From positions 1 to 12,903 of the IMG/VR virus record IMGVR_UViG_2531839662_000018: 12,903 nt of DNA, one strand, 5' to 3'. Shown piece after piece: positions 1,243 to 12,903 of this stretch (the stretch's first letter is position 1; each line of letters starts with the position of its first letter). The notes under the pieces were generated by a model. That model made no database searches and was not told the origin of the DNA. It was given only the letters and a program-made list of their open reading frames with translations. The stretch comes from a virus (Duplodnaviria; Heunggongvirae; Uroviricota; Caudoviricetes). A program made the position numbers and the translations under genes.

Positions 1243-1340
1243 CTGTACAAAAAGCCAGTGCAACCAGTGAAAACCATGCCAAACCATCGTATAATTGCCA
1301 CAAATTTAACGACAAGGCCGGAGTATATGAAAATTCTATT

Positions 1341-1571
1341 ATGCAAAATACCACCGCCTACGGCGAAGGCCTGCAACTGGCCTTAATGGCAAATCGTGAA
1401 TTCTGGTCAACGTACGATCCGGAAGACAAATCAACAGCCCCCACAAAACACGAGGTAGTCAGTTTTTTGCGCTCGCGTGGCGCATCGAAAAATCTGGCTG
1501 AAAGCATCGACAAGGTGCTGAGACCCACCAGCCTTAAATGCGGTGGACGACCTAAGAAGTGGAAGCGGTAA
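1341..1571 (+). CDS. hypothetical small protein (76 aa)
   Basis: Open frame between int and alpA with a protein-like, charged composition. Its stop is followed immediately by an intrinsic terminator. The ribosome-binding site is weak: the nearby GGAG (1319-1322) is better placed for a 19-codon ORF at 1327. A TATAAT hexamer lies at 1290-1295. Confidence 0.4.
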   Translation: MQNTTAYGEGLQLALMANREFWSTYDPEDKSTAPTKHEVVSFLRSRGASKNLAESIDKVLRPTSLKCGGRPKKWKR

Positions 1572-1576
1572 TCACA

Positions 1577-1607
1577 ATAGCGGCCCTTTGCGGTCGCTAT
1601 TTTTTTG
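1577..1607 (+). terminator. rho-independent terminator after the int / small-ORF unit
   Basis: A roughly 9-bp stem (ATAGCGGCC / GGTCGCTAT, one G.T pair) with a CTTTGC loop, followed directly by a T7 run (1600-1606). Confidence 0.6.
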
Positions 1608-1636
1608 CAAAAAGAAAAGCGTAATCAATGAGATAA

Positions 1637-1676
1637 AAAACAGTGGGTACCGTTTTAAAACGGTGGGTACTGTTTT
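1637..1676. promoter_or_regulatory. two tandem 20-bp near-palindromic sites upstream of alpA (candidate operator)
   Basis: AAAACAGTGGGTACCGTTTT (1637-1656) is followed directly by AAAACGGTGGGTACTGTTTT (1657-1676), 18/20 identical. In each unit the 8-bp arms are inverted repeats of one another. They lie about 65 bp upstream of the alpA start. Confidence 0.4.
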
Positions 1677-1741
1677 TCCCGCCCTGCCCTGTTTTACCGT
1701 ATTTATCACCGGAATACGCCGGATTAACGAGGTAAAACATA

Positions 1742-1948
1742 GTGGAAACAATCAGAAAAATCCTTACCCGTCAGGAAGTAAAAAATATTCTGCGCATCAA
1801 GGCAGACAGTTCGCTACAGGACATGATCAACGCCGGAAAATTCCCGAAAGGCTTCAAAATCGGTCTGCGTCGTGTTGGCTGGTATGAAGATGAGGTGCTG
1901 GCCTGGCTGAAAGAACGCGAGGAAGAAGCGCGCGGAACGGCTGCGTAA
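1742..1948 (+). CDS. alpA: AlpA-family (excisionase-like HTH) transcriptional regulator
   Basis: 68-codon ORF with a GTG start and a GAGGT Shine-Dalgarno about 10 nt upstream. The sequence fits the AlpA pattern (FPKGFKIGLRRVGWYEDEVLAWL), and int followed by alpA is the canonical order in these islands. Confidence 0.85.
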   Translation: METIRKILTRQEVKNILRIKADSSLQDMINAGKFPKGFKIGLRRVGWYEDEVLAWLKEREEEARGTAA

Positions 1949-1967
1949 TGGTGTGAGGCGTAACGCG

Positions 1968-2954
1968 ATGAACATAACAAAAAGCGCCCCGTTGCCGGAG
2001 CGCCTTTGTGAACGAATAGCCTACTGCGCCATATTGCTTACTGTCTACGAGGCAGATTATAGCGTTGTGGTCGCACAGAGTGAAGGCGCTGATCACCGTT
2101 ACTACAGCACGCCAGAAATGCAGAATATTTTGCTGCAAAATGCCGTTGGTCACGCCGTCCGGAAAGCAAAAAATTTTGCTGGTGGCGCGACTGATGCGAT
2201 TTTGTCAGGTCGCCAGGTGCTGATCAATCTGATGTCTGATTTCGTTCTGGATAAAACAAAGGCGACCGCAGAGAGCCGCCAGTGGAAAAGCTACATACTT
2301 GAACGCATCACCAACAATGCCACATTTGCGGCTGGTGGGCAAAGCGTAACCGGAAAAAAATTCCGGTGGGGCTATTCCTGCTCTTTGGCCTTGCGACGCT
2401 GGCGGTATTCAACTTCTCGCTTTAATGCTGCTGTTACAAACTGCCCTGTACTTTCACCAGGCATTTTTACCGCCTCAACATTGTTCATAACTTCATGCGG
2501 AACCCTTGCCGCAACTGTTTGTGATTTTGCGTTTACTGCTTTTGTTGCCATGTTGTGTACCCCTTACAAAAAACAAATGCAGTATGCAGGAAAAAAAATA
2601 AGTGTTCAACACTTGACGTGTTTAACACCAGGGCTTAAATTGGTGTTCAACACCTTACTGATGCAAGGTGCAGAAACGACGAAACCCGGCAGTGCGCTAA
2701 CACTAACCGGGCTTCTAACCACCAACGATAGAAAGCGTATCGAGGTAGCTATGAGAAATTATACCAGACACCCGCAAGGGCGGGACTCGTACAACCTGAA
2801 TAAATACATCTGGCGTTTTATCGCCCTGAGCACGGCACAACCGCGCGTGATTCACATCGTGGCCACCAGCGAACAGGAAGCACGCCAGCAATCCCCGGCT
2901 GGCTGCGTGATGGTATTCGCTGCCCGTATTCGCCAGGAGGTACGCCATGATTAA
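1968..2954 (+). CDS. long stop-free frame (328 aa from ATG 1968); probably a composite, not one protein
   Basis: The 5-prime 400 nt has a GAGG ribosome-binding site 9 nt upstream and coding-like, purine-rich first codon positions. The middle (2372-2654) reads as Cys/Ser/Thr/Phe-rich junk, is antisense to a well-formed RHH ORF, and contains three perfect palindromes plus a promoter. The 3-prime 204 nt (ATG 2751, GAGGT site) ends in an ATGATTAA overlap with the next gene. A gene finder would likely call the whole ORF; I consider that call doubtful. Confidence 0.3.
   Translation: MNITKSAPLPERLCERIAYCAILLTVYEADYSVVVAQSEGADHRYYSTPEMQNILLQNAVGHAVRKAKNFAGGATDAILSGRQVLINLMSDFVLDKTKATAESRQWKSYILERITNNATFAAGGQSVTGKKFRWGYSCSLALRRWRYSTSRFNAAVTNCPVLSPGIFTASTLFITSCGTLAATVCDFAFTAFVAMLCTPYKKQMQYAGKKISVQHLTCLTPGLKLVFNTLLMQGAETTKPGSALTLTGLLTTNDRKRIEVAMRNYTRHPQGRDSYNLNKYIWRFIALSTAQPRVIHIVATSEQEARQQSPAGCVMVFAARIRQEVRHD
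2372..2551 (-). CDS. ribbon-helix-helix (Arc/CopG-like) transcriptional repressor candidate, 59 aa
   Basis: Minus-strand ORF MATKAVNAKSQTVAARVPHEVMNNVEAVKMPGESTGQFVTAALKREVEYRQRRKAKEQE, below the ORF-track length cutoff. It has a beta-strand/helix/helix RHH pattern, an AAGGGG Shine-Dalgarno 8 nt upstream, and G/A-rich first codon positions, while the opposite strand looks antisense. It is transcribed divergently from the adjacent palindromic operators. Confidence 0.55.
   Translation of the reverse strand: MATKAVNAKSQTVAARVPHEVMNNVEAVKMPGESTGQFVTAALKREVEYRQRRKAKEQE
2601..2654 (+). promoter_or_regulatory. rightward sigma70-like promoter overlapped by three palindromic operators
   Basis: Palindromes AGTGTTCAACACT (2601-2613), GTGTTTAACAC (2618-2628) and GGTGTTCAACACC (2642-2654). 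Candidate -35 TTGACG (2613-2618) and -10 TTAAAT (2635-2640) with a 16-bp spacer. One operator sits just upstream of the -35, one in the spacer and one just after the -10. Confidence 0.55.
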
Positions 2955-3312
2955 CCTGTCAATTTCTGACCTTAACAGCATTCAGTTTGATGAGAAATTC
3001 ACCGGGCAGCTACTGGTTAACGTGGAGAATGGACGCGTGGCAAGTAATTATCACCTGCCGGATGGTGCAATTGCCGGAAGCGTTGAAGCATTGCTGGAGC
3101 TGGCAGAACGTGCGCGACTGATTAAGCCGTTAACGAGCCATCACGATGATGATCTGCATTTTACCGGACGCATGGTGAGTCACTACGAAAACGGCGTTGA
3201 AGTATCCCGAGAACGGCTGCGAGATGATTGCTGTTTCGGAACACTGCCGGAATTTATCGAATTGCTGACCAGTTGCGGTTATCAGGTTATTCAGGGGGTG
3301 AATCATGGATAA
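2947..3312 (+). CDS. hypothetical protein (121 aa); paralog of the next gene
   Basis: Strong AGGAGG Shine-Dalgarno 6 nt upstream. The start overlaps the upstream frame stop (ATGATTAA). Its N-terminal half resembles the downstream 66-aa protein. Confidence 0.75.
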   Translation: MINLSISDLNSIQFDEKFTGQLLVNVENGRVASNYHLPDGAIAGSVEALLELAERARLIKPLTSHHDDDLHFTGRMVSHYENGVEVSRERLRDDCCFGTLPEFIELLTSCGYQVIQGVNHG

Positions 3313-3505
3313 TCAGCAAGCAACAATGACAATTACCCTGAGTGTGCCAGATGATTTCACCGGACGCATACTGGTTTACCTGGATAAAGGGAAAGTGAAA
3401 TCACAATGCCGACTGAAAAGTAATGAGATTGTTGGTTCTCCTGAATTTTTTTCTGAACTCTGTATTCGTGCGGAAATAAAACCGGAACTGCTGACAGGAA
3501 AATAA
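3305..3505 (+). CDS. hypothetical small protein (66 aa); paralog of the N-terminal half of the previous gene
   Basis: Overlaps the previous gene by 8 nt, with a GGGGGTG ribosome-binding site. The two proteins share an alignable block (DDFTGRILVYLDKGKV ... IVGSPEFFSELCIRAEIKP versus DEKFTGQLLVNVENGRV ... IAGSVEALLELAERARLIKP). Confidence 0.7.
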   Translation: MDNQQATMTITLSVPDDFTGRILVYLDKGKVKSQCRLKSNEIVGSPEFFSELCIRAEIKPELLTGK

Positions 3506-3509
3506 AACC

Positions 3510-3809
3510 ATGAAAAAGAAAAATTCTGGCTTTACTGCCAGTGGTCTCCCTCGGCCTGAAATCCGCCCCGGCGATATTTTCCGGGATAACTACGGCGGCA
3601 CGGTAACGATTAAAAGTATTGCCGGACGGTGCGTTACTTACCGCCGTGATGGGTACAGCTACGACTGCGTGATGCCTGTTTATCAGTTCCGGCGTGATTT
3701 TTCACTGATACAGGCCACACCACGCAAACAGCCCACCAGCAACGCAAAGGCACGGGCAAATATTCAGAAAATGAAAAACATGATTAACGCATTCAGGGGC
3801 ACAAAATGA
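3510..3809 (+). CDS. hypothetical protein (99 aa)
   Basis: Tightly packed in the operon; its stop overlaps the next start (ATGA). No family recognised. Confidence 0.7.
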   Translation: MKKKNSGFTASGLPRPEIRPGDIFRDNYGGTVTIKSIAGRCVTYRRDGYSYDCVMPVYQFRRDFSLIQATPRKQPTSNAKARANIQKMKNMINAFRGTK

Positions 3810-5221
3810 AACTGGCACCGAACTTAAAAAAACAGCCACACGACAAAATGACCGAAGTCATTATTTTTGCGGGTAGTGATGCCTGGGCGCACGCGAAACA
3901 GTGGCAGGAGCAGGACGGGCGACTTGCTGGCGACAACGTGCCGCCTGTATGGCTGGGAGACAGCCAGCTTGACGAACTGGCAGACCTGAAAATTATCGAC
4001 GATGGTCGCTATTGTGTCCGGCTGTACAAGGCAGGCCACATCAAGCCGTCAAATATTAACGCCATCGGGCAAAAGCTGGCGGCGGCAGGTGTACGGGATG
4101 CGAATTATTACCCCGAGGGAATGCACAGCCAGAAACGCGAGGAGTGGCGCGAATATCTGGAACGAGAGCGCCAGAAAAGACTGTCCGGAGAGATACCAGA
4201 GGAAGAAAAAAACGACCAGCGAAAAACCACACTGCCAATGAGTATTGGATCTGCAGGGTACGACACACAGCTTGATTATGTCGTTAAGGGCGTGATTCCG
4301 GCTAATTCATTGTGCAGCACATACGGCGCGAGCGGTTCCTATAAATCGTTCCTCGCGTGTTCCTGGGCGTGTCATGTTGCCACGGGTCGCCACTGGGGAG
4401 GCCGCAGGGTGGCGCATGGTTCGGTGATGTATGTCGTCGGTGAAGGTGGCATTGGTGTCCCTCGTCGTATCAAAGCATGGGAAATCGTTAATGATGAACG
4501 GGTGAAAAATCTGTACCTGGTAAACCGCCCGATTTTTCCGGCGGTCCCGCTTGATGTTGATGAAATGGTCATCGCTTCCCGTCAGGTTGAACGGGAAACG
4601 GGTAAACCGGTACGCATGATTATTCTGGATACGCTGGCGCGTTGCTTTGGCGGTAATGATGAAAATGACGCGCGGGATATGGGGGCGTTTATCCGTGGAT
4701 GTGACGAACTGAAACGACGCACAGGGGCTACGGTACTGGTGGTTCACCATTCCGGCAAGGATGAAACAAAAGGGGCGCGTGGTTCCAGTGCATTTCGTGC
4801 ATCTCTGGACGCTGAATACCGTATTCGCCGTGAAGGTGCGGACAGTGAAGCCCTGGTTATCTCCTGCACCAAAATGAAGGACGCGGAGGAACTGAAAGAG
4901 GCTGCATATGATTTACGCGTGGTGGAGCTTTTTACCGACACTGACGGGGAGTTAATCACGTCGCTGGTGGTTGTGGATAAGCCGCGCCCACCTGTTGAAC
5001 TGGAACGCATCGAGGAGGCCGGGAACAAGACGGAAAATCACGCTGCGCTATGGCAGTGCATCAGAACGCGAACAGCACACGGGGAGGCGTGCACTATCGC
5101 CCTTCTCCGCGATGATATGAAAAAGCTGGGGTATGAAATGAAAAACTTCCGGCGCTGGCTGTACAAGCTGGAAAGCGACGGCGTAATCGCTATTGACGGT
5201 GATTATGTGCGCCCACTGTAA
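3806..5221 (+). CDS. replication protein with RepA-like RecA-fold helicase/ATPase domain (471 aa)
   Basis: P-loop-like YGASGSYKSF, Walker-B-like MIILDTLARCF and the LVVHHSGKD motif typical of RepA/AAA_25-type replicative ATPases. The N-terminal domain of about 160 aa is of unknown type. The gene is followed immediately by an iteron array. Confidence 0.85.
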   Translation: MKLAPNLKKQPHDKMTEVIIFAGSDAWAHAKQWQEQDGRLAGDNVPPVWLGDSQLDELADLKIIDDGRYCVRLYKAGHIKPSNINAIGQKLAAAGVRDANYYPEGMHSQKREEWREYLERERQKRLSGEIPEEEKNDQRKTTLPMSIGSAGYDTQLDYVVKGVIPANSLCSTYGASGSYKSFLACSWACHVATGRHWGGRRVAHGSVMYVVGEGGIGVPRRIKAWEIVNDERVKNLYLVNRPIFPAVPLDVDEMVIASRQVERETGKPVRMIILDTLARCFGGNDENDARDMGAFIRGCDELKRRTGATVLVVHHSGKDETKGARGSSAFRASLDAEYRIRREGADSEALVISCTKMKDAEELKEAAYDLRVVELFTDTDGELITSLVVVDKPRPPVELERIEEAGNKTENHAALWQCIRTRTAHGEACTIALLRDDMKKLGYEMKNFRRWLYKLESDGVIAIDGDYVRPL

Positions 5222-5612
5222 AAAGTGAGGAGCAAAAGTGAGGATGGCGGGTAATTTAACAAAAAATCAACGCCACTCCTCACTTTCTCACCTGTATATA
5301 GGTCAAAAAGTGAGGAATGAAAAACATATTGTAAAACAAGACATTACAACAACAAGAAAAACAGGTGAGGAGCAGGACGGGAATAACAAAAAGTGAGGAA
5401 CAAAAGTGAGGAATGGTGAGTTAATAGAAATGAGGTAATAAAAATAACAGGTAGGTTAAAAAACACACCATGCAAGATATTAACTAAAACTTAACTATTT
5501 ACCTCACTTTTGCGTATATATAAGGATTAAAAAGTGAGTACTTAAAAATACATTTAAAATCATATTGTTATTAACTTCATAAATTTTCACTGTGCAGCAG
5601 GTGAGGAATTAA
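5221..5612. repeat. iteron array / candidate replication origin
   Basis: At least nine copies of the core AAAGTGAGGA, with CAGGTGAGGA variants, in both orientations (for example 5221-5232, 5235-5245, 5278-5287 reversed, 5305-5319, 5361-5372, 5387-5399, 5402-5415, 5501-5510 reversed, 5598-5610). They are embedded in AT-rich DNA with no ORF, directly downstream of the rep gene. Confidence 0.75.
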
Positions 5613-5687
5613 AAAATCAGGAATGTTAAAAATGAAAACAGAATGTTGTGTCAGTGCCGTTGGGCAACGTAGCAATCAGTAAAAACG

Positions 5688-6230
5688 ATGGGGCAAAGCA
5701 TGACTAAGCTGACCATTAACAGAAAACCTAAAGGCATTTACGGCACGCCGCAGAAAACGACGCAGGCGGCGCAGGAGCAGGATAAAACCACGTCGGCGCA
5801 TAAAGTGATGCCCGGTAACCAGAAAGCGCAGCAGAAGCCCACAGGGGCGACACCGTGGCGGCATATGACCAAACGCCAGCGCAAAAACCGCAGGCGCGTT
5901 AACCGCCTTATCGAACTGTGGCCAGAATTATTCAGCCGGGAAGCACCGAAGCCGCTTAAGGTGGGGATATTTGACGACCTGATGCAGGATCTCGCCGTCA
6001 GGGGGCTGGCATTCGGGCCAGGGGCATTACGTGCGACGCTGGCATCTTATGCGCAGTGTCCGCGCTATTACCGCGCCTTAATGGCTGGTGGGGTACGCTA
6101 CGACCTGAAAGGCCAGCCGTGCGGCGAGGTGACACCACAGGAACAACAGGACGCAGAAACGCGGCTGGTGGCGCTGAATGAGAAGCGCAAACGTCAGCGC
6201 CGGGCAGCAAAGGAGAAAACAGGCGCATGA
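5688..6230 (+). CDS. ProQ/FinO-domain RNA-binding protein
   Basis: The central region (PLKVGIFDDLMQDLAVRGLAFGPGALRATLASYAQCPRYYRALMAGGVRYDLKGQPCGEV) matches, from memory, the conserved ProQ N-terminal/FinO domain. Basic Lys/Arg-rich N- and C-terminal tails. An alternative start at ATG 5700 has a better GGGG ribosome-binding site. Confidence 0.85.
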   Translation: MGQSMTKLTINRKPKGIYGTPQKTTQAAQEQDKTTSAHKVMPGNQKAQQKPTGATPWRHMTKRQRKNRRRVNRLIELWPELFSREAPKPLKVGIFDDLMQDLAVRGLAFGPGALRATLASYAQCPRYYRALMAGGVRYDLKGQPCGEVTPQEQQDAETRLVALNEKRKRQRRAAKEKTGA

Positions 6231-6514
6231 TTCACGACAGCAAAGCGGAAGCACTGGAAGCGCGTGGTCTGTACCGGAGAGCGGCGGCGCGGTGGGCTGA
6301 GGTCATCATGCTGGCGAATGATGACAAGGCACGGGAACAGGCGGCAAAACGTCGCGCGGAATGTATCCGCAAGGCAGCACGCCCACCAGCACGGCAGGAT
6401 AATTTCGGGGAGATGCGCGAAACCATCAGCCGGGCACATGCCGGGATGGGATTACATCAGCCCAATGGTAAGGCATTCAGGAAATACCCTGGATCGAAAA
6501 ATTGCAGTCAGTGA
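6227..6514 (+). CDS. PerC-like small transcriptional regulator candidate (95 aa)
   Basis: The start overlaps the previous stop (ATGA). The N-terminus (KAEALEARGLYRRAAARWAEV) resembles the conserved opening of PerC-family regulators, recalled from memory without alignment. Basic, Arg-rich protein. Confidence 0.6.
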   Translation: MIHDSKAEALEARGLYRRAAARWAEVIMLANDDKAREQAAKRRAECIRKAARPPARQDNFGEMRETISRAHAGMGLHQPNGKAFRKYPGSKNCSQ

Positions 6515-6519
6515 CGGAG

Positions 6520-6544
6520 GCCGGGATTTTTCCCGGCTTTTTTG
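6520..6544 (+). terminator. rho-independent terminator 1 after the ProQ/FinO-PerC unit
   Basis: 7-bp stem GCCGGGA / TCCCGGC with a TTTT loop, followed by TTTTTTG. Confidence 0.75.
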
Positions 6545-6555
6545 TGCCAGTAAAA

Positions 6556-6590
6556 AGCCCGCAGCCAGAAGTGTTGCGGGCTTTGTTTTT
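6556..6590 (+). terminator. rho-independent terminator 2 (tandem)
   Basis: 8-bp stem AGCCCGCA / TGCGGGCT with an 11-nt loop, followed by TTGTTTTT. Confidence 0.7.
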
Positions 6591-6715
6591 CAGGTGATTG
6601 AAGTCAATGGGAAGAACGCGATCATCATGCGTTATTGTTTCATAAATTGCAATGATGTAGATCGTCATTTCAGTTTGTGCAATCATAATCGTTGTTTTGT
6701 TCAGGAGATATGACT

Positions 6716-6889
6716 ATGAGAAAAGCCAGCGTGAAACCCGTTTTACTCGCTCGTGAGCAGATTGAAGCATTACAGCGCATCCAGGACGAGGAACGCCGCA
6801 ATTCTCCGCTGGGGATTGCTCCGAGCATTCATGAGGTCGCCCGGCGTTTAATGCAGCGGGCGCTTTATCCCGTAGAACGTCCGGCCTGA
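6716..6889 (+). CDS. hypothetical small protein (57 aa), first gene of the downstream operon
   Basis: ATG at 6716 with an AGGAG Shine-Dalgarno (6703-6707, 8-nt spacing). The ORF-track start at 6692 lacks a ribosome-binding site. An AT-rich promoter-like region lies at 6600-6700. Confidence 0.55.
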   Translation: MRKASVKPVLLAREQIEALQRIQDEERRNSPLGIAPSIHEVARRLMQRALYPVERPA

Positions 6890-6928
6890 TGGTCGTGATT
6901 TTTTGGTGAAAAAAGAGAGGTGGTAACA

Positions 6929-7513
6929 ATGCCAGCAAGCAAAGAAGATTTGCGATTAAAACTGATGGAGGTGGTTAACGCTCTGTCAGAGTCGCAGGGC
7001 AGCACTCCGCAGGAGATTATCGAAATTCTGAATGCGATCCCCGCACAGGATTTCACAAAAGCAGATGAGGACAACGCGAATCAAAACATCGTCGCGTCAG
7101 TCGAAGATGAATCCTCACTGGCAGAAGCCCAGGCTAAAGCAGATTCCGCATACAGCAATATGGGCCGTCGCGCTCCAGCCCCGTTTGCTGGTGAAAAGTC
7201 GATGGATTACCGCAAGCGTGCATTAATTGGTGCACAGAAGCTGGCTAAAAAATTCAGTGATGTGGATATTCGTTCCGTTTCAGATTCTGCAACGCTGGCG
7301 GTGCTGGAAGATCAGATTTACCAGGCTGCAAAAGACAGTGTTCAGTGGGCCGTGGAAAACACGCCGGGCCATTTGGGTAAAACCGTAAGAATGGATGAAG
7401 CTGGTCGTCGTATTACTGAATATCAGGGCGATCCGAACGTCTGGCTGAACGCCTTCAAAATCCCTCCCCGTCGCCTGGTCAAAATTAACACTGCAAGCCT
7501 CGCGGGGGCATGA
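6929..7513 (+). CDS. hypothetical protein (194 aa)
   Basis: ATG at 6929 with an AGAGAGG ribosome-binding site 8 nt upstream; the ORF-track start is a GTG at 6920. Acidic N-terminal half. No family recognised. Confidence 0.75.
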   Translation: MPASKEDLRLKLMEVVNALSESQGSTPQEIIEILNAIPAQDFTKADEDNANQNIVASVEDESSLAEAQAKADSAYSNMGRRAPAPFAGEKSMDYRKRALIGAQKLAKKFSDVDIRSVSDSATLAVLEDQIYQAAKDSVQWAVENTPGHLGKTVRMDEAGRRITEYQGDPNVWLNAFKIPPRRLVKINTASLAGA

Positions 7514-7577
7514 AAAACGTGCTGAGTTCAGCCCTGCCGGATTTGGCGGGGCTTATTGCTTATAACCGGATAACATT

Positions 7578-8249
7578 ATGCTTTTAACAGAAATTGAGGC
7601 GGCAAAGCAGATTCGGGACGGTCAGCTACCGTCGCCTTATCAGTTTTCCAACATGTGGCTGGTTAACCTGCGTATTACAGGAACCGGTATGGCCTACCGC
7701 GCCGAAGAAAAAGAATTTGTCTGGCGTTCACCGCAAACTTATCTCAATCCGCAGTTCCTGGAACGTTGCGCCGGAGTACCCGTCATTATCGACCATCCCG
7801 AAGGCAAAACCATTGAAGACGTTGGCGAACGGTCGCGCATTATTGGCACCGTCATGTTGCCGTATATTCGCGGTGACGAGGTGTGGGGTGTATGCCGGAT
7901 TTACGGGCAGGAAATCATCGATTACATCCAGAAAGCACGGGGGGAGGTATCCACCAGCCCGTCGGTTGTGTTTTGTGGTGCGTCCGGTGGGGCAGAAGTT
8001 CCTGATGTAATGGGCGAGGACAATTTTTTCATTGAGGGTACGCCATTCCTTATCGATCACGTTGCGCTCGTGCCGCTTGGTGTTTGGGATAAGGGCGGGA
8101 AACCATCGGGTGTGGAGGTAACAACGCCGACAGCAGAAGAACAGCTCGCCGGAATGGTCCGGGACGTTATTGATGCGGCCTGCAAGCCAGCCCTGGAAAA
8201 ACTGGAAGAAATATCCGGGCGGCTGGCTCAACTGGAAAAAACAGAGTGA
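7578..8249 (+). CDS. hypothetical protein (223 aa)
   Basis: Protein-like composition; only a weak ribosome-binding site. A faint resemblance to phage prohead-protease-like folds (PVIIDHPEG ... IGTV ... EVSTSPSV) is too weak to call. Confidence 0.75.
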   Translation: MLLTEIEAAKQIRDGQLPSPYQFSNMWLVNLRITGTGMAYRAEEKEFVWRSPQTYLNPQFLERCAGVPVIIDHPEGKTIEDVGERSRIIGTVMLPYIRGDEVWGVCRIYGQEIIDYIQKARGEVSTSPSVVFCGASGGAEVPDVMGEDNFFIEGTPFLIDHVALVPLGVWDKGGKPSGVEVTTPTAEEQLAGMVRDVIDAACKPALEKLEEISGRLAQLEKTE

Positions 8250-8256
8250 GTGAATC

Positions 8257-8874
8257 ATGAAAATTGCTAAAAACTTAAATCTGATTATCCCTGTGCGCAC
8301 TGAAAAGGGAAATGGCTGGATCCATGCCACGCCGATCAGCAAAGAGGTGTTTAAAGAGCATTTCTTCATCCTGAGTAAAACCTTTTCTGCCATTTTTTCT
8401 GAAGGTCTTGGTGTTGTTGCGGGTCCGCGCGTTGCCTGCCTTATGCTGGAGAAAATCTCCCGTGACTCCGGTTTATGGGATGGGGAGAAAGGCATACGTA
8501 ATACGCTCATAAACGAAATTATTCGCCTGGCAAACCTTGTTTATCCAGTGGAGGGCAAAGGCTACGACACAATCCCTCTCGATATGGCGCTGGAGCGTGA
8601 AATCGTTGATTTGGACGAAGTGGCGGGTGAACTTGTTTTTTTTACATGCGTCTCGTCGATAAATTCCCCGGAGCAGACGAAGGGGACTATGGATGCGGTG
8701 AATGGAATATGGAGCACTCAATGCTCGTCCTTGAGTCTTACGGAATGGATCGCTTCATTGCCGACATTGAAGCCTGCCGTCAGTTCTGGCGCGACGGCGA
8801 ACACGTCATCAGCGACATCCTCGACTACTCAGCCGGAGCCGGATTCAGAGACATCTGTGCAGATTCCGGTCTGA
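8257..8874 (+). CDS. hypothetical protein; zero-frame product 205 aa, candidate upstream partner of a -1 frameshift pair (G-like)
   Basis: The first 129 codons are protein-like. After the T8 run (8636-8643) the zero frame becomes Ser/Thr-rich low complexity until its stop at 8874, while the -1 frame carries a well-formed ORF. Confidence 0.6.
   Translation: MKIAKNLNLIIPVRTEKGNGWIHATPISKEVFKEHFFILSKTFSAIFSEGLGVVAGPRVACLMLEKISRDSGLWDGEKGIRNTLINEIIRLANLVYPVEGKGYDTIPLDMALEREIVDLDEVAGELVFFTCVSSINSPEQTKGTMDAVNGIWSTQCSSLSLTEWIASLPTLKPAVSSGATANTSSATSSTTQPEPDSETSVQIPV
8636..8643 (+). other. T8 homopolymer forming a U UUU UUU slippery heptamer (candidate -1 programmed frameshift site)
   Basis: Zero-frame codons GTT TTT TTT ACA. 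A -1 slip re-pairs both tRNAs on TTT and continues as TAC ATG into the frame of ORF 8646-8939. Confidence 0.4.
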
Positions 8875-8939
8875 ATGTAAAAACAGCAGCTCAGTTTCGT
8901 GAGCTGCTCAAATTCAAAAATCCCGCAGGAGTATTGTAA
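8646..8939 (+). CDS. -1 frame ORF (97 aa from its first ATG), probably the C-terminal extension of a frameshift fusion (GT-like)
   Basis: This frame opens at 8631 just before the slip site. Its stop overlaps the start of the 679-aa gene (TAATG). Protein-like composition (FIADIEACRQFWRDGEHVISDILDYSAGAGFRDICADSGLNVKTAAQFRELLKF). Internal ATGs at 8709 and 8721, the latter with a GGAG ribosome-binding site, allow independent initiation as an alternative. Confidence 0.5.
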   Translation: MRLVDKFPGADEGDYGCGEWNMEHSMLVLESYGMDRFIADIEACRQFWRDGEHVISDILDYSAGAGFRDICADSGLNVKTAAQFRELLKFKNPAGVL

Positions 8940-10978
8940 TGTCAGGTAATCAGATGCCAGTTCTAACGCTGGACGTTAATGAAGAACACCTCAAACGGCT
9001 TGAGGCAATTTTTGAAAAGTATCGCAACGGGCTGATGATCGGCCCTGCCGGAACGCCGATGAAAATACCGGGGCAAAGTGGGCGCAGCGTGGGGGCAGGC
9101 TTACCCGTGGCGGCAAAATCTGGTCGGACAGGACCGGATGTATCCGGGAGAGTGAGGGACGAAAAAGGGCGCTTTGTCGGCAGCGGAAAAACAGCAGATT
9201 CGTTCGTAAGCAACTATAAAGGTCGCGGCGAAACGATGTTTGATAAGTATCTCAGCGGGCTGGGGAAAAATGCCCAACAGACGCTGAAAACTTACAAGCA
9301 GATCAATTCTACACTACAGACGACCACTTCAAGATTAAACAACCTGTTTAAAACAACCGTATCGTGGGGAACAAAACTCTCGGTTATGGGCGTTGCCGGA
9401 CCGTTTGGCTTTGGCATGATGTCCCGTAGTGTTGTAGAGAAACAGAAAAATGCAGATGAGCTGGTGGCAACGCCAGGAGAGTTAAAGGCGGCAGAAAGCA
9501 CTTATTCGCCTTATTTTTCCGGTGTTGGCAATGTGCTCAATACACTGGCAGCAGCACAAAATGATATATCGCATCCTGCCCGCGTCGGCCTGCTTAATCT
9601 GGGGCTAAATCCTGATAAAAACGCGACTGAAAACCTGCCTGTATTCCTGAAAAAGGTTGCAGCGCTGGCAAAGGAATATCAGGGAACTGGTCTTACCCAG
9701 AGCAATTTCAGAGGAATGGGGCTTGGATGGGTAAATTTTGGTCTTACTAACCAGTTAGTCAAATATCAGGACAAAATACCTGAACTCAACAAAGAGTTTT
9801 CGTTACGTGCAGCGCAGAATGATTCGTTACTGACCTCTGCACATACAAGTAAATATCAGAATCTTACCAGTAACCTGGAAAAAAACTGGGATCGGCTTAC
9901 CAGCGGATTTCAGGGAGCAATGGCGGGGAATGAAGACGCTTTAATCAGAATGTCTGATGGTACCACGAATGCTGCCCTGAATTTCATGAATGGTGAGAAC
10001 TTTAAAAGGATTCTGACTGATGTTGAAACGGGGCTGGATAAACTTGGTAAGTACGTTAATGGCCCGGATTTTAATAACGACCTGAACAATTTTGCCGAAA
10101 ACGTTGCAAAGGTCACCAAGGCACTTAGCGGATTTGTTGGTTTTGCCGTTGAACATCCCTGGCTTTTTGGGGCCGCAGTGCTTGCGGGGCCATCAAGAGT
10201 TGGTGCCGTGGCAGCCACAACAACCGGAGTTGCCGCTCGTGTTGTCGGTGGAAGTCTTCTTGGGGCTACAGCCGGAACAGTAGCAGGATTGGCTATTCCT
10301 ACAAATAACACACCTACCACCAGTGAGGAAATGAAAGGGCTGGAGGGGCGTTTCAACTTTGATTATTTTAACGAAGTGCAGGAGTGGCAAAAAAACAATC
10401 CGGGTAAGGTCTGGCCTGGAGGATTGCAGGGATTTTCAAATCAAGTAAACAGATCTGCATATTTATCCAGAGGGATCAGGAATAACAATCCCGGAAATCT
10501 TAATTTCGCAGGACAAAAAGGGGCTACTCTGGAATCGGGGCCAAATGCCCGTTTTGCCAGCTTCCCGACGATGCTGGAAGGCATTGCCGCCTTAGATCGG
10601 CAGGTAATGCTATACCTGAAACGCGGCAAAAATACGATTGATCAGATTATTGATATTTATGCCCCTTCATCTGATGGAAATAACACATCGTCCTATAAAA
10701 GCTATCTTTCTCAGTACACCGGATTAGGTGTTAAGGAGAAAATTGATGGTTCTAATTTTGAGGTCATGAAAAAGCTAATTCAGGGCATTATTAACCATGA
10801 AAATGGTGCTGCCGCTAAAGCTGTAAGTGTTGAAGATGTGATCCGGGCGCTGGCTATGAATCGTGGGATTGTCCCTGCAGCAGGAAACAATGATCAGAAC
10901 GTTAAGTTGGAAATTGTTCGGAACGCTGGTGCCGATTACTTCGCGCAACTAATTGGTGCTCAACGGTTCCTGGGATGA
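8939..10978 (+). CDS. large protein (679 aa) with Gly/Ala-rich hydrophobic core; tape-measure-like candidate
   Basis: Strong AGGAG ribosome-binding site, coupled to the upstream ORF. An Asn/Thr/Gly-rich N-terminal 400 aa. A hydrophobic segment FAVEHPWLFGAAVLAGPSRVGAVAATTTGVAARVVGGSLLGATAGTVAGLAIP (nt about 10143-10300). A C-terminal domain of about 220 aa containing the motif RGIRNNNPGNL (nt about 10471-10503). Confidence 0.9.
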   Translation: MSGNQMPVLTLDVNEEHLKRLEAIFEKYRNGLMIGPAGTPMKIPGQSGRSVGAGLPVAAKSGRTGPDVSGRVRDEKGRFVGSGKTADSFVSNYKGRGETMFDKYLSGLGKNAQQTLKTYKQINSTLQTTTSRLNNLFKTTVSWGTKLSVMGVAGPFGFGMMSRSVVEKQKNADELVATPGELKAAESTYSPYFSGVGNVLNTLAAAQNDISHPARVGLLNLGLNPDKNATENLPVFLKKVAALAKEYQGTGLTQSNFRGMGLGWVNFGLTNQLVKYQDKIPELNKEFSLRAAQNDSLLTSAHTSKYQNLTSNLEKNWDRLTSGFQGAMAGNEDALIRMSDGTTNAALNFMNGENFKRILTDVETGLDKLGKYVNGPDFNNDLNNFAENVAKVTKALSGFVGFAVEHPWLFGAAVLAGPSRVGAVAATTTGVAARVVGGSLLGATAGTVAGLAIPTNNTPTTSEEMKGLEGRFNFDYFNEVQEWQKNNPGKVWPGGLQGFSNQVNRSAYLSRGIRNNNPGNLNFAGQKGATLESGPNARFASFPTMLEGIAALDRQVMLYLKRGKNTIDQIIDIYAPSSDGNNTSSYKSYLSQYTGLGVKEKIDGSNFEVMKKLIQGIINHENGAAAKAVSVEDVIRALAMNRGIVPAAGNNDQNVKLEIVRNAGADYFAQLIGAQRFLG

Positions 10979-11029
10979 TTTAAATACACGCGCTTTCCGG
11001 CGCATTAATACAGTCTGAGGGGAAGTGTC

Positions 11030-11554
11030 ATGTTTATGAGCAAGGCAGAATATGCCAAACACAAAGGCGTAAGCCGCCAGACAGTTTACGACTGGATCGA
11101 GAAAGGCGAAGTGGTCATGTCCGGTAAAAAAATCGATGTGGAAGCGACAGAGCAGCGGAACAGCCCACCAGCACAGGGAAAAGATACCGTTTCTGAAATG
11201 TGGCCAGAGAGAACGCTGGAAATGACGTGGGGCGAGTTCTGGAAAGCAGTTAAGGCCAGAGACGGTAAAATCCCTGCACCAGTAACGGACGATGACATAC
11301 AGCAGCGTGTGCAGGATGCAGCCGGGGAATTATGCTGTGAAGTGCAATTTCTTGATGATGGTGCTATCTGCCTTGAGGATTATGCTGGGCAATATTACTT
11401 TGAGCAGTATGATTTTCGGGAAAATGCCAGGCTGGCAATTCGTATGCTGCGTTGTGAGCTCTGCTATGTTGCAGGTGATTGTCCCGATGAGCTGGATAAC
11501 TGGAGTGAAGCCGGACTAAACGCCCTGGCTGAGTGGGAAAAATCATCCCATTAA
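11030..11554 (+). CDS. HTH DNA-binding protein (174 aa), excisionase/terminase-small-subunit-like N-terminal HTH with Cys-rich C-terminal domain
   Basis: GAGGGGAAG ribosome-binding site. The N-terminus (KAEYAKHKGVSRQTVYDWIEKGEV) is a classic HTH of the Xis/AlpA/TerS-Nu1 type. The C-terminal half has six Cys (CCEVQF ... CLEDY ... CELCYVAGDC). Confidence 0.8.
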   Translation: MFMSKAEYAKHKGVSRQTVYDWIEKGEVVMSGKKIDVEATEQRNSPPAQGKDTVSEMWPERTLEMTWGEFWKAVKARDGKIPAPVTDDDIQQRVQDAAGELCCEVQFLDDGAICLEDYAGQYYFEQYDFRENARLAIRMLRCELCYVAGDCPDELDNWSEAGLNALAEWEKSSH

Positions 11555-11565
11555 TGACCGTAAAA

Positions 11566-11857
11566 TTCGCGAAAAGTGTCAAGTCAGGCCGTCTGCCGGG
11601 TTGACACTTTACACTCTGAACGCGAAAAAGTGTCAACCTCGCTGTAAACCCCGCCGTTACTGGCTTTGCGCCAGATTTACCACGTCAAAAAGCCGAAAAA
11701 ATCGCGAAAAGTGTCAAGTTGCCATGCTTAGAAATGCTAAGGTTTGATAAGGTTTTTCGCGAAAAAGTGTCAAGTGTGTCAACCTGCGATGTTAAGGTTT
11801 GTTAAGGTCTTAAGCCGGAAAGTGTCAACCAGCCCCCTAAGATTTCCTAAGGTGTAA
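11566..11857. repeat. array of two interleaved short repeat families (candidate protein-binding or packaging/origin-like site)
   Basis: Family 1 is CGCGAAAAGTGTCAAG and variants (11566-11584, 11621-11638, 11702-11720, 11757-11784, 11817-11830, plus an inverted copy TTGACACTTT at 11601-11610). Family 2 is (C/T)TAAGGT(T/C)T in six copies (11738-11757, 11791-11814, 11836-11857). The region has no ORF. Confidence 0.7.
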
Positions 11858-11860
11858 ATC

Positions 11861-12040
11861 ATGACCATCACCGAAGCCGATATGCTGGAGATGATCCGCA
11901 GCATTGCCGGAATCAGACAACCAGCAAGCAAAATTAACAGGTGTTCAGCGCCTGTTTCCGTTGTGCTGCAACAGGAGCGCCACCAGCATGATGATGTGAG
12001 GCCGTATCAGTGGCGGAAACCGGACAGGCCGCGACGGTGA
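11861..12040 (+). CDS. short paralog (59 aa) of the terminal gene, with an internal deletion
   Basis: MTITEADMLEMIRSIAGIRQPASK ... RPYQWRKPDRPRR. Both ends are homologous to the 94-aa protein at 12619-12903 by eye at DNA and protein level, but about 40 central residues are missing. It has an AAGGTG ribosome-binding site and is below the ORF-track cutoff. Confidence 0.45.
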   Translation: MTITEADMLEMIRSIAGIRQPASKINRCSAPVSVVLQQERHQHDDVRPYQWRKPDRPRR

Positions 12041-12148
12041 GCGGAGCGTTCGGTAAGGCTACAGCCAAGCCTTACATTAAGCCTACGGGTAACCCTTCGA
12101 AGGGGCTTTAAAGGGGAGATGATTATCCTTACCCGTTGATAAACAAGC

Positions 12149-12168
12149 AAACCTCAAATTTGAGGTTT
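12149..12168. promoter_or_regulatory. perfect 20-bp palindrome AAACCTCAAATTTGAGGTTT (one of a pair)
   Basis: Perfect inverted repeat. A related copy AAACCTCGATTTGAGG lies at about 12349-12364, roughly 200 bp downstream. Confidence 0.4.
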
Positions 12169-12466
12169 GTATCTGCCTGACTTATTTTTGTGCTAAGTTG
12201 TTGATATATCCGACGACGCAAAATTGCGCTGGCTACATCCCTCACATCTGAGGACTGTTAACCAGCAGGCCGGAATATATTCACAAACTACGAAATTTTC
12301 GCAGTTTAATTACTCGCCAGCTTAATCGCTAACCCACTGATATTTTCGGAAACCTCGATTTGAGGAGACCGGAACGTCTACATGACTGCATCACCATAAC
12401 GATTTCCGTTACAGTTGATGTGCTTTTTTGCTGGTAAGGCCTAACCCGTTGATTCTTCCACAATTC

Positions 12467-12518
12467 CCCATTGGGGGAGGCTGGGCGGCCTGCTGTGGAC
12501 TTTTCCACCATTGGTGGG
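12467..12518. promoter_or_regulatory. pair of related palindromes upstream of the terminal gene (candidate operator)
   Basis: CCCCATTGGGG (12467-12477) and CCACCATTGGTGG (12506-12518) share the core CCATTGG, with centres 40 bp apart, about 100-150 bp upstream of the ATG at 12619. Confidence 0.4.
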
Positions 12519-12618
12519 AAACATGGCACCACATCCACCAGCTTAAACGCGCTTCACCTTCCCGTTATCAGTCGCCACAATTACGGCATTGTTTCCCCAT
12601 CCTCTGGAGGCCATGACA

Positions 12619-12903
12619 ATGACCGAAGCCGAAATGCTCAAAATGATTCGCCAGATTGCCGGGATCAGACCACCAGCAGGCAAACAGGAGGCCACGCAGC
12701 CGGACAGCGTGATAGCCGAAAATTACGCGCGTGTGGTGGCTGAGGTGATGCGCCGTGACGGTATCGAGCTTAACGGCGTTGATATGCGCGACATACGAAT
12801 CAGAGTTCTGGAGATGTTGTCATATCGTCGCCGCGTGGAGATGTACCGGGAGAGCGAGAAAAAGACTTACCAGTGGAAAAAACCGGAGCGGCTGCGTACG
12901 TAA
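12619..12903 (+). CDS. hypothetical small protein (94 aa)
   Basis: ATG at 12619 with a GGAGG Shine-Dalgarno at 8-nt spacing; the ORF-track starts at 12589 and 12613 lack a good ribosome-binding site. Highly charged, protein-like sequence (MTEAEMLKMIRQIAGIRPPAGKQ ... KTYQWKKPERLRT). The stop is the last codon of the window. Confidence 0.75.
   Translation: MTEAEMLKMIRQIAGIRPPAGKQEATQPDSVIAENYARVVAEVMRRDGIELNGVDMRDIRIRVLEMLSYRRRVEMYRESEKKTYQWKKPERLRT

Follow-up and report, generated by a model that had tools for sequence, protein, structure and literature searches.

The present analysis concerns the right end of an apparent phage satellite island of Escherichia coli, viewed in a window of 12,903 nucleotides (the whole stretch of DNA analyzed, positions 1 to 12,903 of IMG/VR record IMGVR_UViG_2531839662_000018). 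One base differs across the whole window from the genome of E. coli UMNF18 (NZ_AGTD01000001.1), and the part at 11600-12903 is 100% identical to it. The window runs from the start codon of an integrase gene to the stop codon of the last annotated gene, and it closes with two open reading frames (ORFs), ORF1 and ORF2, which flank a 578-bp spacer (12041-12618) whose longest ORFs encode only 69 aa (minus strand) and 62 aa (plus strand). Both ORFs are related to the gene that stands last in satellites of this group, the phrog_1561 family, hereafter called the terminal gene, and the spacer contains four units in which a box resembling the core of an integration host factor (IHF) site is followed by palindromic DNA. 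The features of this region are as follows; L-numbers, here and below, are labels of compared loci, L001 being the 33-kb UMNF18 locus.

11861..12040, plus strand: ORF1, 59 aa, a truncated and chimeric copy of the terminal gene (phrog_1561 family)
11919..11932, plus strand: crossover point that gave rise to ORF1, AACCAGCAAGCAAA, the 14-nt overlap of the similarity to L002 (ends at 11932) and the similarity to L007 (starts at 11919)
12053-12075: hairpin, GTAAGGCT..AGCCTTAC
12093-12104: palindrome, CCCTTCGAAGGG; at the position homologous to 12053-12104, L008 has CCCCTGAAAGGGG
12127..12169, plus strand: unit 1, box CCTTACCCGTTGATA (IHF core with 1 mismatch, 12129-12141) and 22-nt perfect palindrome CAAACCTCAAATTTGAGGTTTG (12148-12169)
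12194..12228, plus strand: unit 2, box TAAGTTGTTGATA (12194-12206, a strict IHF core when read on the minus strand) and palindrome CGCAAAATTGCG
12240-12253, 12273-12282, and 12291-12301: dyads CCTCACATCTGAGG, GAATATATTC, and CGAAATTTTCG, respectively
12330..12373, plus strand: unit 3, box TAACCCACTGATA (IHF core with 1 mismatch, 12330-12342), palindrome AAACCTCGATTTGAGG (12350-12365), and tail AGACCGG
12423..12521, plus strand: unit 4, box TAACCCGTTGATT (strict IHF core, 12442-12454), CCCCATTGGGG (12466-12476), GGGCGGCCTGCT (12483-12494), and CCACCATTGGTGG (12505-12517)
12535..12544: joint, the 10-mer CCACCAGCTT, which opens with the 8-nt complement of Chi; boundary between module 1 and the ORF2 module
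12545..12618, plus strand: leader of ORF2, its native upstream region (module 2), with the ribosome-binding site GGAGG at 12606-12610
12619..12903, plus strand: ORF2, 94 aa, an intact member of the terminal-gene family phrog_1561

ORF1 and ORF2 are homologous at both termini, as an earlier note on this DNA had pointed out: in a BLASTP alignment the two proteins correspond over about 22 residues at the N-terminus and about 12 at the C-terminus, with a 39-residue gap in ORF1 (E 3e-10). The description of ORF1 in that note as a copy from which some 40 central residues had been deleted is only approximately right, because the two ends are connected by 23 central residues with no homology to the phrog_1561 family, and the idea of a simple deletion gives way to that of a chimera. 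Against the family profile, ORF1 matches through residues 3-34 only (E 3.2e-5); it does not pass as a member of the family, since a full-length match is absent and the central region from G48 to R70, bearing the invariant residues G48, L51, D55, I59, R60, R62, L67, and R70, is missing. The window at 10900-11932 is 99% identical to L002, which carries a full gene of 96 aa at this place, and the window at 11919-12165 is 96% identical to a stretch of L007 lying 607-853 nt beyond its complete gene. This L007 sequence lacks a start codon, codes for ..PASKLNGCSAPVSVVLQQERHQHDDVRPYQWRKPDRLRR*, retains no more than the last ~12 codons of the family, and contains ..AACCAGCAAGCAAAC... The overlap of the two similarities in AACCAGCAAGCAAA indicates that ORF1 is a stub of 24 N-terminal codons from one allele fused, via this 14-nt repeat, to a downstream relic, and ORF1 is most likely non-functional. 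The 59-aa form is nevertheless common: there are 72 sequence variants of it, the exact ORF1 sequence is found on 120 contigs, and the form occurs both with and without a second copy of the gene (without in L003, L143, and L144). Two satellites having only the ORF1 form, L143 and L144, reside in one genome, GCA_030346045.1.

ORF2 matches the phrog_1561 profile over its full length (1-93 of 93, E 4.5e-48), keeps all the invariant columns, and shares 86-92% identity with its counterparts in L002, L004, L005, and L008. It is most likely the working copy of the terminal gene. No match to ORF2 was obtained from sequence searches of Pfam, NCBIfam, and PDB or from tblastn of the INPHARED phages, and a scan of genome contigs using the ORF2 protein alone found nothing. 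Its homologues form 972 clusters at 90% identity, nearly all of them E. coli "hypothetical proteins" of 94-97 aa, and only 34 representatives remain at 50% identity; the family of the terminal gene is therefore narrow. An AlphaFold2 model of ORF2 consists of four helices and a basic tail (predicted local distance difference test score 78.5), and a Foldseek comparison of the model with PDB gave no fold match at E<=0.001. The terminal gene is single and last in L002, L004, L005, L007-L009, and 12 IMG/VR contigs, where its neighbors vary: it follows terS-terL of a capsid-forming island in L004, terS of a different capsid/TerS island at the same proL site in L005, and a 174-aa gene like that of UMNF18 in L002 and L009. 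As to the start of ORF2, the RefSeq start at 12619 is better spaced from GGAGG, while an alternative ATG at 12613 (MTMTEAE.., 96 aa) is in register with ORF1 and with the homologues of 96-97 aa.

The two genes stem from different satellite lineages, because the likeness of their DNA is limited to 11860-11932 versus 12612-12684 (82% over 73 nt) and 12005-12033 versus 12868-12896 (76% over 29 nt). ORF2 is also preceded by a native leader of ~85 nt with homology to the leaders in L005, L007, and L008; the similarity begins at 12551 in the case of L007 and at 12573 in that of L005, directly upstream of their single gene, and the ORF2 module as a whole (12535-12890) is 91.6% identical to L008. The left module extends to ..ATCCACCAGCTT, directly followed by the leader of ORF2 (12535-12545), with CCACCAGCTT at the boundary. 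The same 10-mer is present in the canonical right-end element, at the window-equivalent position 13070, and as a single copy close to the right end in L002-L005, L007, and L009, and an identical joint of CCACCAGCTT with the leader is found in L008, where it abuts a truncated terS. The composite recurs in L142 (GCA_023600585.1, 2501-3688) on a different island backbone at another chromosomal site. In that locus the stretch corresponding to 12394-13096 in window coordinates is 98.9% identical, with an identical CCACCAGCTT joint and an identical ORF2 protein, and the spacer block 12124-12321 is exchanged for another block. The exact ORF1 and ORF2 proteins occur together, under consecutive accession numbers, on ~117-120 contigs, and at least 17 of the 24 contigs that were read have the UMNF18 layout at yejO. 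With the two-copy arrangement recurring in many independent assemblies, an artefact of assembly is unlikely. Among 5,426 complete genomes of E. coli, the region was matched in 1284 (about a quarter), and the UMNF18 layout was found in UMNF18 only.

The spacer, too, is a patchwork. Its part at 12277-12521 is 96-98% identical to DNA of L004 and L005 that lies 114-358 nt past their single gene, and other blocks recur in L003, L007, L008, and L009. At the position of the dyad GAATATATTC, where the similarity to L004 and L005 starts (12277), L004, L005, and L011 carry another hairpin, GACTATCTTTCAGATAGTC. Neither an att core nor an integrase remnant was found between ORF1 and ORF2, the att repeat CTCTCGTGCC being present at the island ends only. 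Tandem site-specific integration, considered as a source of the second copy, was rejected for the lack of a second att core in the spacer, and the right end is better understood as the probable product of recombination between satellites, in which two terminal modules were joined head to tail. The location of the joint at a 10-mer containing Chi points to homologous or short-homology recombination. Chi (GCTGGTGG) occurs 16 times in the window (7 on the plus and 9 on the minus strand), including positions 11980, 12535, and 12670 of the right end, and 18 times in the whole island, against 1.4 expected from shuffles of the 33-kb locus; its density in the relatives L020, L033, L042, L063, L102, L103, and L113 is 0.7-1.5 per kb. 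The average density in E. coli is ~0.2 per kb, and the satellites thus exceed it ~4-6-fold. One suggestion of the earlier note, that the region marks a junction between tandem or recombined islands, is supported by the two gene lineages, the patchwork of the spacer, and the joint repeated in L008 and L142, and the related islands present the composite in a second backbone and a right end that is variable and mosaic.

The secondary-structure elements of the spacer described in the same note are also present, with slight adjustments. The hairpins it placed at 12054-12110, including a perfect palindrome, correspond to the hairpin at 12053-12075 and to CCCTTCGAAGGG; the perfect palindrome it placed at 12149-12168 exists with a length of 22 nt, not 20; the related copy near 12349-12364 is AAACCTCGATTTGAGG, and the palindrome pair at 12467-12518 consists of CCCCATTGGGG and CCACCATTGGTGG. 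Perfect palindromes with arms of at least 5 nt number 6 in the spacer, against 1.08 expected from 2000 dinucleotide shuffles (P 0.0015), and those with arms of at least 6 nt number 3, against 0.26 expected (P 0.0025); the longest arm, 11 nt, has a P of 0.0005. The spacer folds better than the shuffles on the plus strand (z -3.98) and on the minus strand (z -3.77), and as both strands fold alike, the excess of structure is strand-symmetric. A search with the Rfam 15 covariance models gave no hit at gathering score in the window, the hits at E<=5 lying only outside the island at the yejO terminator. ARAGORN detected no tRNA or tmRNA, in agreement with the earlier note, while the small RNA which that note had envisaged is unsupported, given the absence of Rfam hits and the equal excess of structure on both strands. 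A scan for plus-strand terminator-like sites (G+C-rich stem and T-tract) found none in the spacer; the 22-nt palindrome scores as terminator-like on the minus strand only, and the number of sites equals the shuffle expectation. The minus strand of the array encodes only short ORFs with stops, and a repeated "..ENINGL.." peptide on that strand is explained by the origin of the units described below. The structured look of the spacer is simply that of the unit palindromes together with a few other dyads, and the four units account for the 22-nt palindrome, its related copy AAACCTCGATTTGAGG, and the palindrome pair. A disrupted terminator was noticed at 12107-12127, where L142 (2757-2790) and L008 keep a canonical plus-strand terminator, GGGATGGT..ACCATCCCTTTT and GGGGAGgTG..CAcTCCCCCTTTT, respectively, with compensatory differences.

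The units were found by side-by-side reading of the regions downstream of 21 copies of the terminal gene. A scan of viral contigs with a 14-mer box returned mostly chance hits, and the 12 of 120 loci with both the gene and an array were used. A unit has the box TAAC(C/T)CG(T/C)TGAT(A/T)TTT(C/T)CGG, then after ~10 nt a palindrome that is short and perfect, and finally a tail, for example AGGTCGG. Between 1 and 7 such units stand behind the terminal gene in about 20 related satellites; all of them have the orientation of the gene, and the first unit begins at the stop codon of the gene (CGG CGG TAA C). The box reads TAACCCGTTGATATTTTCGG on the plus strand; on the minus strand it conforms to the consensus of the IHF core, WATCAANNNNTTR, and has an A/T tract ahead of it. 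In most loci the 700 nt that follow the gene hold 2-4 strict IHF cores, in a single orientation, against 0.011 expected, and since the boxes of the spacer match the core consensus with its 5' A/T tract, binding of IHF to them is predicted. A perfect stem of at least 5 bp follows 32 of the 48 distinct candidate boxes (11% in shuffles), and 69% of those 32 have stems of at least 6 (3% in shuffles). The palindromes themselves differ: 17 were recognized, for example TTCGCCAGCGGCGAA, CAGCCAACGGCTG, CCTCAATTTGAGG, GCGCAAAATTGCGC, CTCCTCAATTTTGAGGAG, CGGCTCAAAATTGAGCCG, and TCCCCCATTGGGGGA. All four types of Watson-Crick pairs are used at stem position 4, and stem positions 6-7, which lie outside the selection criterion, are paired in 60% of cases within units versus 22-33% between units. 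In at least 20 distinct units the repeated segment is ~45-65 nt long and stops shortly beyond the palindrome on one side and shortly beyond the box on the other, and such tight boundaries argue for retention of a site rather than for random gene debris. With respect to unit 1, L007 has only the 14-nt core CCTCAAATTTGAGG and then the usual tail AAGCCGG (L007 4190-4210). The 22-nt palindrome extends CCTCAAATTTGAGG, and the similarity to L007 stops at 12165, inside the 3' arm, so that the extension is compatible with a template-switch or junction event. The architecture of the mosaic and its array is well supported.

The likely origin of the units emerged when 12277-12580 was searched against 50,697 phage records, because genes of the antirepressor type were the only matches. 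The segment at 12338-12373 is 91.7% identical to PhiR49_2 Roi (E 2e-4), that at 12423-12483 is 78.7-85% identical to genes of Stx phages annotated as "DNA-binding protein," Roi, or anti-repressor, and that at 12480-12521 is 85.7% identical to the antirepressor of phage SSU5. With tblastn, unit 4 aligns QPPPMGNCGRINGLGLTSKKAHQL with QLPPMGISENINGLGLTQKSKHYL of a phage protein with the Phage_pRha domain (PF09669), the segment lying inside the domain, and unit 4 may be regarded as a ~100-nt fragment of a rha/antirepressor-type gene placed on the minus strand. The array of L105, examined unit by unit, resembles phiP27 Ant (88.9%), DNA-binding proteins of Stx1a phages (86.5%), and the roi genes of HK620, H-19B, Stx2-86, and CUS-3 (88.6%). 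In all nine of the phage loci that were fetched, the roi/rha gene is on the strand opposite to the unit. Four parts of the arrays, in the window and in L105, thereby fall on one and the same place of the phage genes, and the matches suggest that the units all go back to a single internal segment of roi/rha, the part coding for ..PPMGISENINGLG... The phage genes share the layout of the units, as seen from the alignment and from a table of alleles, with an IHF core and then an allele-specific palindrome ~10 nt away: CCTCAATTTGAGG is inside roi of HK620, PhiR49_2, and JLK-2012, TCCCCATTGGGGGA is in an Stx2 phage, CCACCATTGGGGG in HK629 and VT2-Sakai, and CAGCCATTGGCGG in phiP27, and the four encode P-Q-I-E, P-P-M-G, P-P-M-V, and P-P-M-A, respectively. 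The palindrome classes of the satellites are therefore the palindromes of different roi alleles. In phage HK022, the roi gene (34655-35377) contains the only strict IHF core within 8 kb, and CTGCATTGCAG, a dyad of the CTCGATTGCAG type, is 11 nt away from it. HK022 Roi reportedly binds a site within its own gene near an IHF site, and IHF is said to stabilize the complex, according to work by Clerget and Boccard from 1996 (J Bacteriol 178:4077).

Starting from the mosaic, the chimeric ORF1, the foreign ORF2 module with its joint, and the units with their orientation, statistics, and roi homology, all of which can be read in the comparisons above, we consider it probable, though well short of certain, that the right end is a recombination mosaic carrying an array of IHF and Roi-type operator sites that acts at the level of DNA. 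Two terminal modules of different satellite lineages would have been joined head to tail by recombination at CCACCAGCTT, module 1 comprising ORF1 and the four units, and module 2 comprising the intact ORF2 with its native 85-nt leader and the sequence close to attR. The units would serve as a platform for IHF and for DNA-binding proteins of the Roi/Rha type from helper phages, and the allele-specific copies of the operator might let the satellite sense or titrate the helper protein. The repeated boxes, together with the many Chi sites, would make the island end a hot zone of recombination, which would explain both the mosaic and the extra copy of the gene. When the earlier note mentioned operators as one possible meaning of the palindromes, it had in mind operators for the terminal gene; the pairing of the palindromes with IHF boxes and their homology to a roi/rha segment agree with the first half of that idea, but not with the terminal gene as the target. 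A more specific and clearly tentative extension is that the array constitutes a library of the autoregulatory sites of helper roi genes, each consisting of an IHF site and an allele-specific Roi operator, which is heritable and updated by recombination and which might recognize, titrate, or answer the Roi/Rha proteins of many helpers or, if it is transcribed, silence roi by antisense.

Several observations weigh against the DNA-level operator array. The four "N" positions of the box are largely conserved, and 9 of the 32 boxes have C at a T of the consensus; such conservation outside the IHF consensus means that common descent explains much of the box. In L007, L009, L032, and L113 the array opens with a different, terminator-like element. 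Palindromes of 18-25 nt exceed a typical operator and could mean hairpin formation or template-switch mutation. About 5 of 8 mosaic boundaries are near palindromes, a coincidence that is suggestive but falls short of significance (rough binomial P estimated at about 0.09), so that recombination directed by hairpins is at most a possibility. The E-values of single-unit BLAST matches are marginal (2e-4 to 4e-2 against 2.3 Gb), so that the case for roi homology would draw its strength from the consistency of these matches, and no Roi match in phages was obtained with 12041-12330, the first half of the spacer.

The units might alternatively be neutral recombination debris, that is, scars of repeated illegitimate or short-homology exchanges between satellites and the roi genes of helpers, whose palindromes and IHF boxes were taken over from roi, where they may matter, and would play no part in the satellite. 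The whole right end is indeed mosaic with variable cargo, the satellites are rich in Chi, the order and number of units differ between islands, and the conservation of the box reaches non-consensus positions just as recent common descent predicts. We nevertheless regard this explanation as unlikely, if worth serious attention, on the same grounds on which a function is ascribed to the units: one decayed gene could not leave up to seven copies of a single 50-nt internal piece, the limits of at least 20 distinct units follow the bipartite site closely, and the palindromes, although non-coding, stay perfect despite a unit divergence of 10-25%, differ by compensatory changes, and are in several cases longer or more perfect than those in the phage genes. 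Tandem duplication in situ, followed by internal deletion and decay of the first copy next to an unrelated structured spacer, would account for the termini shared by ORF1 and ORF2, but it is hardly credible in view of the low likeness of the two copies beside a flank of ORF1 that is 99% identical to an island with a full-length gene, the existence in L007 of the 3' part of ORF1 at a distance of 600 nt behind a complete gene, and the leader of ORF2, which is its own and has homologues in other islands.

Another possibility is a role at the level of RNA, with the array as the 3' untranslated region of the terminal gene, as a source of antisense RNAs against roi mRNAs (maybe aided by ProQ/FinO), or as hairpins that stabilize or terminate the operon transcript. 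That the units begin at the stop codon of the gene in its orientation, are antisense to roi in 9 of 9 phage loci, and have covarying hairpins is what such a role would predict, and the ProQ/FinO protein encoded by the island, the canonical terminators with compensatory changes in L142 and L008, and the folding of the spacer (z -3.98) fit in with it. The lack of an Rfam family, the equally good folding of the minus strand, the absence of T-tracts after the unit hairpins on the plus strand, and the absence of a ProQ gene from satellites of the L005 type make it rather improbable; moreover, antisense action needs complementarity to roi, not palindromy, and the satellite palindromes are often more perfect than those of the phages. 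A G-U asymmetry test for discriminating RNA from DNA had n=1. The DNA-level role is favored because palindromy itself is kept and because the excess of structure is strand-symmetric. It also seems very improbable that the array is a cis site of the satellite life cycle such as cos/pac, an extended arm of attP, or att relics of elements targeting roi. The array adjoins terminase genes ~0.3-1.5 kb from attR, IHF sites are typical of cosB and attP, GGGCGGCCTGCT at 12483 agrees with lambda cosN at 9 of 12 positions, and two cos sites exist in EcCICFT073 (PMC6092414, PMC6739421). The matches to cosN (GGGCGGCGACCT) are at the chance level, however, with 9 found against 10.5 expected and 3 mismatches in the best of them, so that a lambda cosN was rejected as a candidate; the array follows three unrelated terminase set-ups (P27-type TerS and TerL with HNH, another TerS, and the helix-turn-helix (HTH) protein of UMNF18); arm-type repeats (TTTTTAGCTACACGTT..) lie elsewhere, near the att cores; and the islands are inserted at tRNA or other chromosomal sites, not in roi. 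An integron attC, which would have R'' (RYYYAAC) at one end of an imperfect palindrome and R' (GTTRRRY) at the other and would be accompanied by IntI, was dismissed by inspection: GCCTAAC and GTTGAT(T/A) are adjacent and do not flank the palindrome, GTTGATW departs from GTTRRRY, and no IntI integrase was found in the island.

Among known systems, the closest are the Gram-negative phage-inducible chromosomal islands (PICIs) such as EcCICFT073 and the capsid-forming PICIs (cf-PICIs), which share with the UMNF18 island an integrase by a tRNA, AlpA, an iteron replication module, one gene direction, and a size of ~13 kb. UMNF18 resembles them also in the packaging-type genes near its right end, and the terminal gene with its array ends the cf-PICI-like L004 and the capsid/TerS island L005 as well. 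The two cos sites of EcCICFT073 provide a precedent for duplicated cis elements at PICI ends (PMC6092414). UMNF18 differs from the PICIs in that no Rpp homologue was detected by sequence (neither the 174-aa HTH protein nor ORF2 has a PDB match) and that it lacks a lambda-like cosN. With the reported roi site of HK022 the satellite units have in common an IHF core, a palindrome ~10 nt away, and direct sequence homology; the phage site is single and inside coding sequence, whereas the units are non-coding, present in 1-7 copies, and of several allele types side by side, with palindromes that are often longer or more perfect and with binding that is predicted. RIP/RIB elements of E. coli (bacterial interspersed mosaic elements, BIME-1, in which repetitive extragenic palindromic (REP) sequences flank an IHF site) are, like the units, extragenic, positioned after stop codons, and variable in copy number. 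The units differ from them in deriving from roi and not REP, in having one direction instead of forming inverted pairs, and in being confined to one position of satellites instead of dispersed. Tandem accretion of islands at tRNA att sites is similar in the retention of a second, partial right-end module and in mosaic blocks shared across sites, while in UMNF18 the copies are not separated by a second att core or an integrase remnant and the joint is at the Chi-containing 10-mer.

The duplication of the gene is ordinary module shuffling at the variable end of a satellite, but the make-up of the spacer is not ordinary. What appears to be new is the array as a set of cis-acting, helper-related sites in satellites, the island itself being an ordinary member of the PICI type. 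The literature search brought up no link of Roi or roi-derived sites to satellites or PICIs, nor of "Roi protein" to IHF, and the terminal gene and the array are not described in the searchable PICI papers. If the copies do bind Roi-type proteins of helpers, they would give the satellite a DNA-level means of detecting or blunting many helpers, and roi, a widespread but poorly understood lambdoid gene, would acquire a role. The library of roi sites, if true, would constitute a new cis-acting layer of the interaction between satellites and helpers. In addition, the arrays and the four- to six-fold excess of Chi would help explain why recombination is so free at the cargo end.

The island around this region is 13.2 kb long in the annotated record and sits between tRNA-Pro (downstream of yejM) and yejO, the tRNA gene being 210 nt upstream of the integrase gene. 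The 10-nt repeat CTCTCGTGCC is found at the 3' end of the tRNA and 320 nt past the end of the window, at positions 4178 and 17624 of L001 only, and the two copies are evidently attL and attR. Near both of them, at L001 4310-4340 and 17536-17566 just outside the window, is TTTTTAGCTACACGTT(T/A)AGCTATACG, which probably represents the arm-type sites of the integrase. The integrase is of the tyrosine type with an arm-binding domain (PF00589, PF22022, and PF13356 matched), and it is accompanied by AlpA (Phage_AlpA PF05930, E 4.5e-8) and a RepA-family AAA_25 helicase (E 3.2e-44). All annotated genes but one are on the plus strand. By this architecture, with a terminal integrase next to an att site, direct att repeats at both ends, an AlpA regulator, a helicase with iterons, one gene direction, and a size within 10-20 kb, the island is to all appearances a PICI-type phage satellite of Gram-negative bacteria. 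Other products include an Icd-like protein, DUF4222, a DUF2213 protease-like protein, a 679-aa protein with a transglycosylase-like C-terminus, and, at 5688-6514, a ProQ/FinO RNA-binding protein (PF04352, E 6.9e-24) beside a PerC-family regulator (E 2.2e-32). One publication reports a PICI of E. coli that represses the locus of enterocyte effacement (PMC11773190). Three further features of the window are listed here.

5220-5640: ori-like region right after the gene of the RepA-family helicase, with at least nine AAAAGTGAGGA iterons in both orientations around A/T-rich DNA
11030..11554, plus strand: 174-aa gene with an N-terminal HTH like that of a small terminase subunit; the last packaging-type gene before the terminal module
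11558..11860, plus strand: region rich in repeats ahead of ORF1, in which (CGCG)AAAAGTGTCAA(G/C) occurs at least six times, five times in direct and once in inverted orientation

Residues 1-42 of the 174-aa protein match the terminase small subunit phrog_57 (E 4.8e-7), and HTH_17 of Pfam scores under its cut-off. A PDB search found no relative of the protein, and the idea that it is Rpp-like was dropped for this reason. The region at 11558-11860, which also holds TAAGGTTTG repeats (families D2-D4, D9, I4, I5, and I13-I16 of the repeat search), is conserved in L002 and L003 (98-99%) and in L009 and has no equivalent upstream of ORF2; its repeats are candidate recognition sites for the 174-aa HTH protein, as a packaging site, or a candidate regulatory or operator region.

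The stretch between the array and attR is a zone of variable cargo in the relatives. L009 has a Panacea-domain (SocA-like) antitoxin pair there (4429-5324), and L002 has an extra PerC regulator and an ORF of 96 aa (6654-7361); among the cargo ORFs beside the arrays no Rha domain was found, and the Panacea antitoxin was found in L009 only. An ori-like cassette lies between the array and attR in L143 (~3300-3480) and also in L008, L103, and L004. It is made up of an IHF core within A/T-rich DNA, a set of three GCGGGTTA repeats, and a set of three inverted repeats of TAACCCGC. The cassette with TAACCCGC is not present in the UMNF18 island, whose iterons are AAAAGTGAGGA, and the notion of the unit box as a replication iteron, modeled on the TAACCCGC cassette of L143 and L008, was abandoned for this reason. 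Elsewhere in the window, the ORFs at 6920-7513 and 7578-8249 match phrog_6216 (545 positions) in permuted order, the upstream ORF corresponding to positions 402-545 and the downstream one (DUF2213, protease-like) to 115-329.

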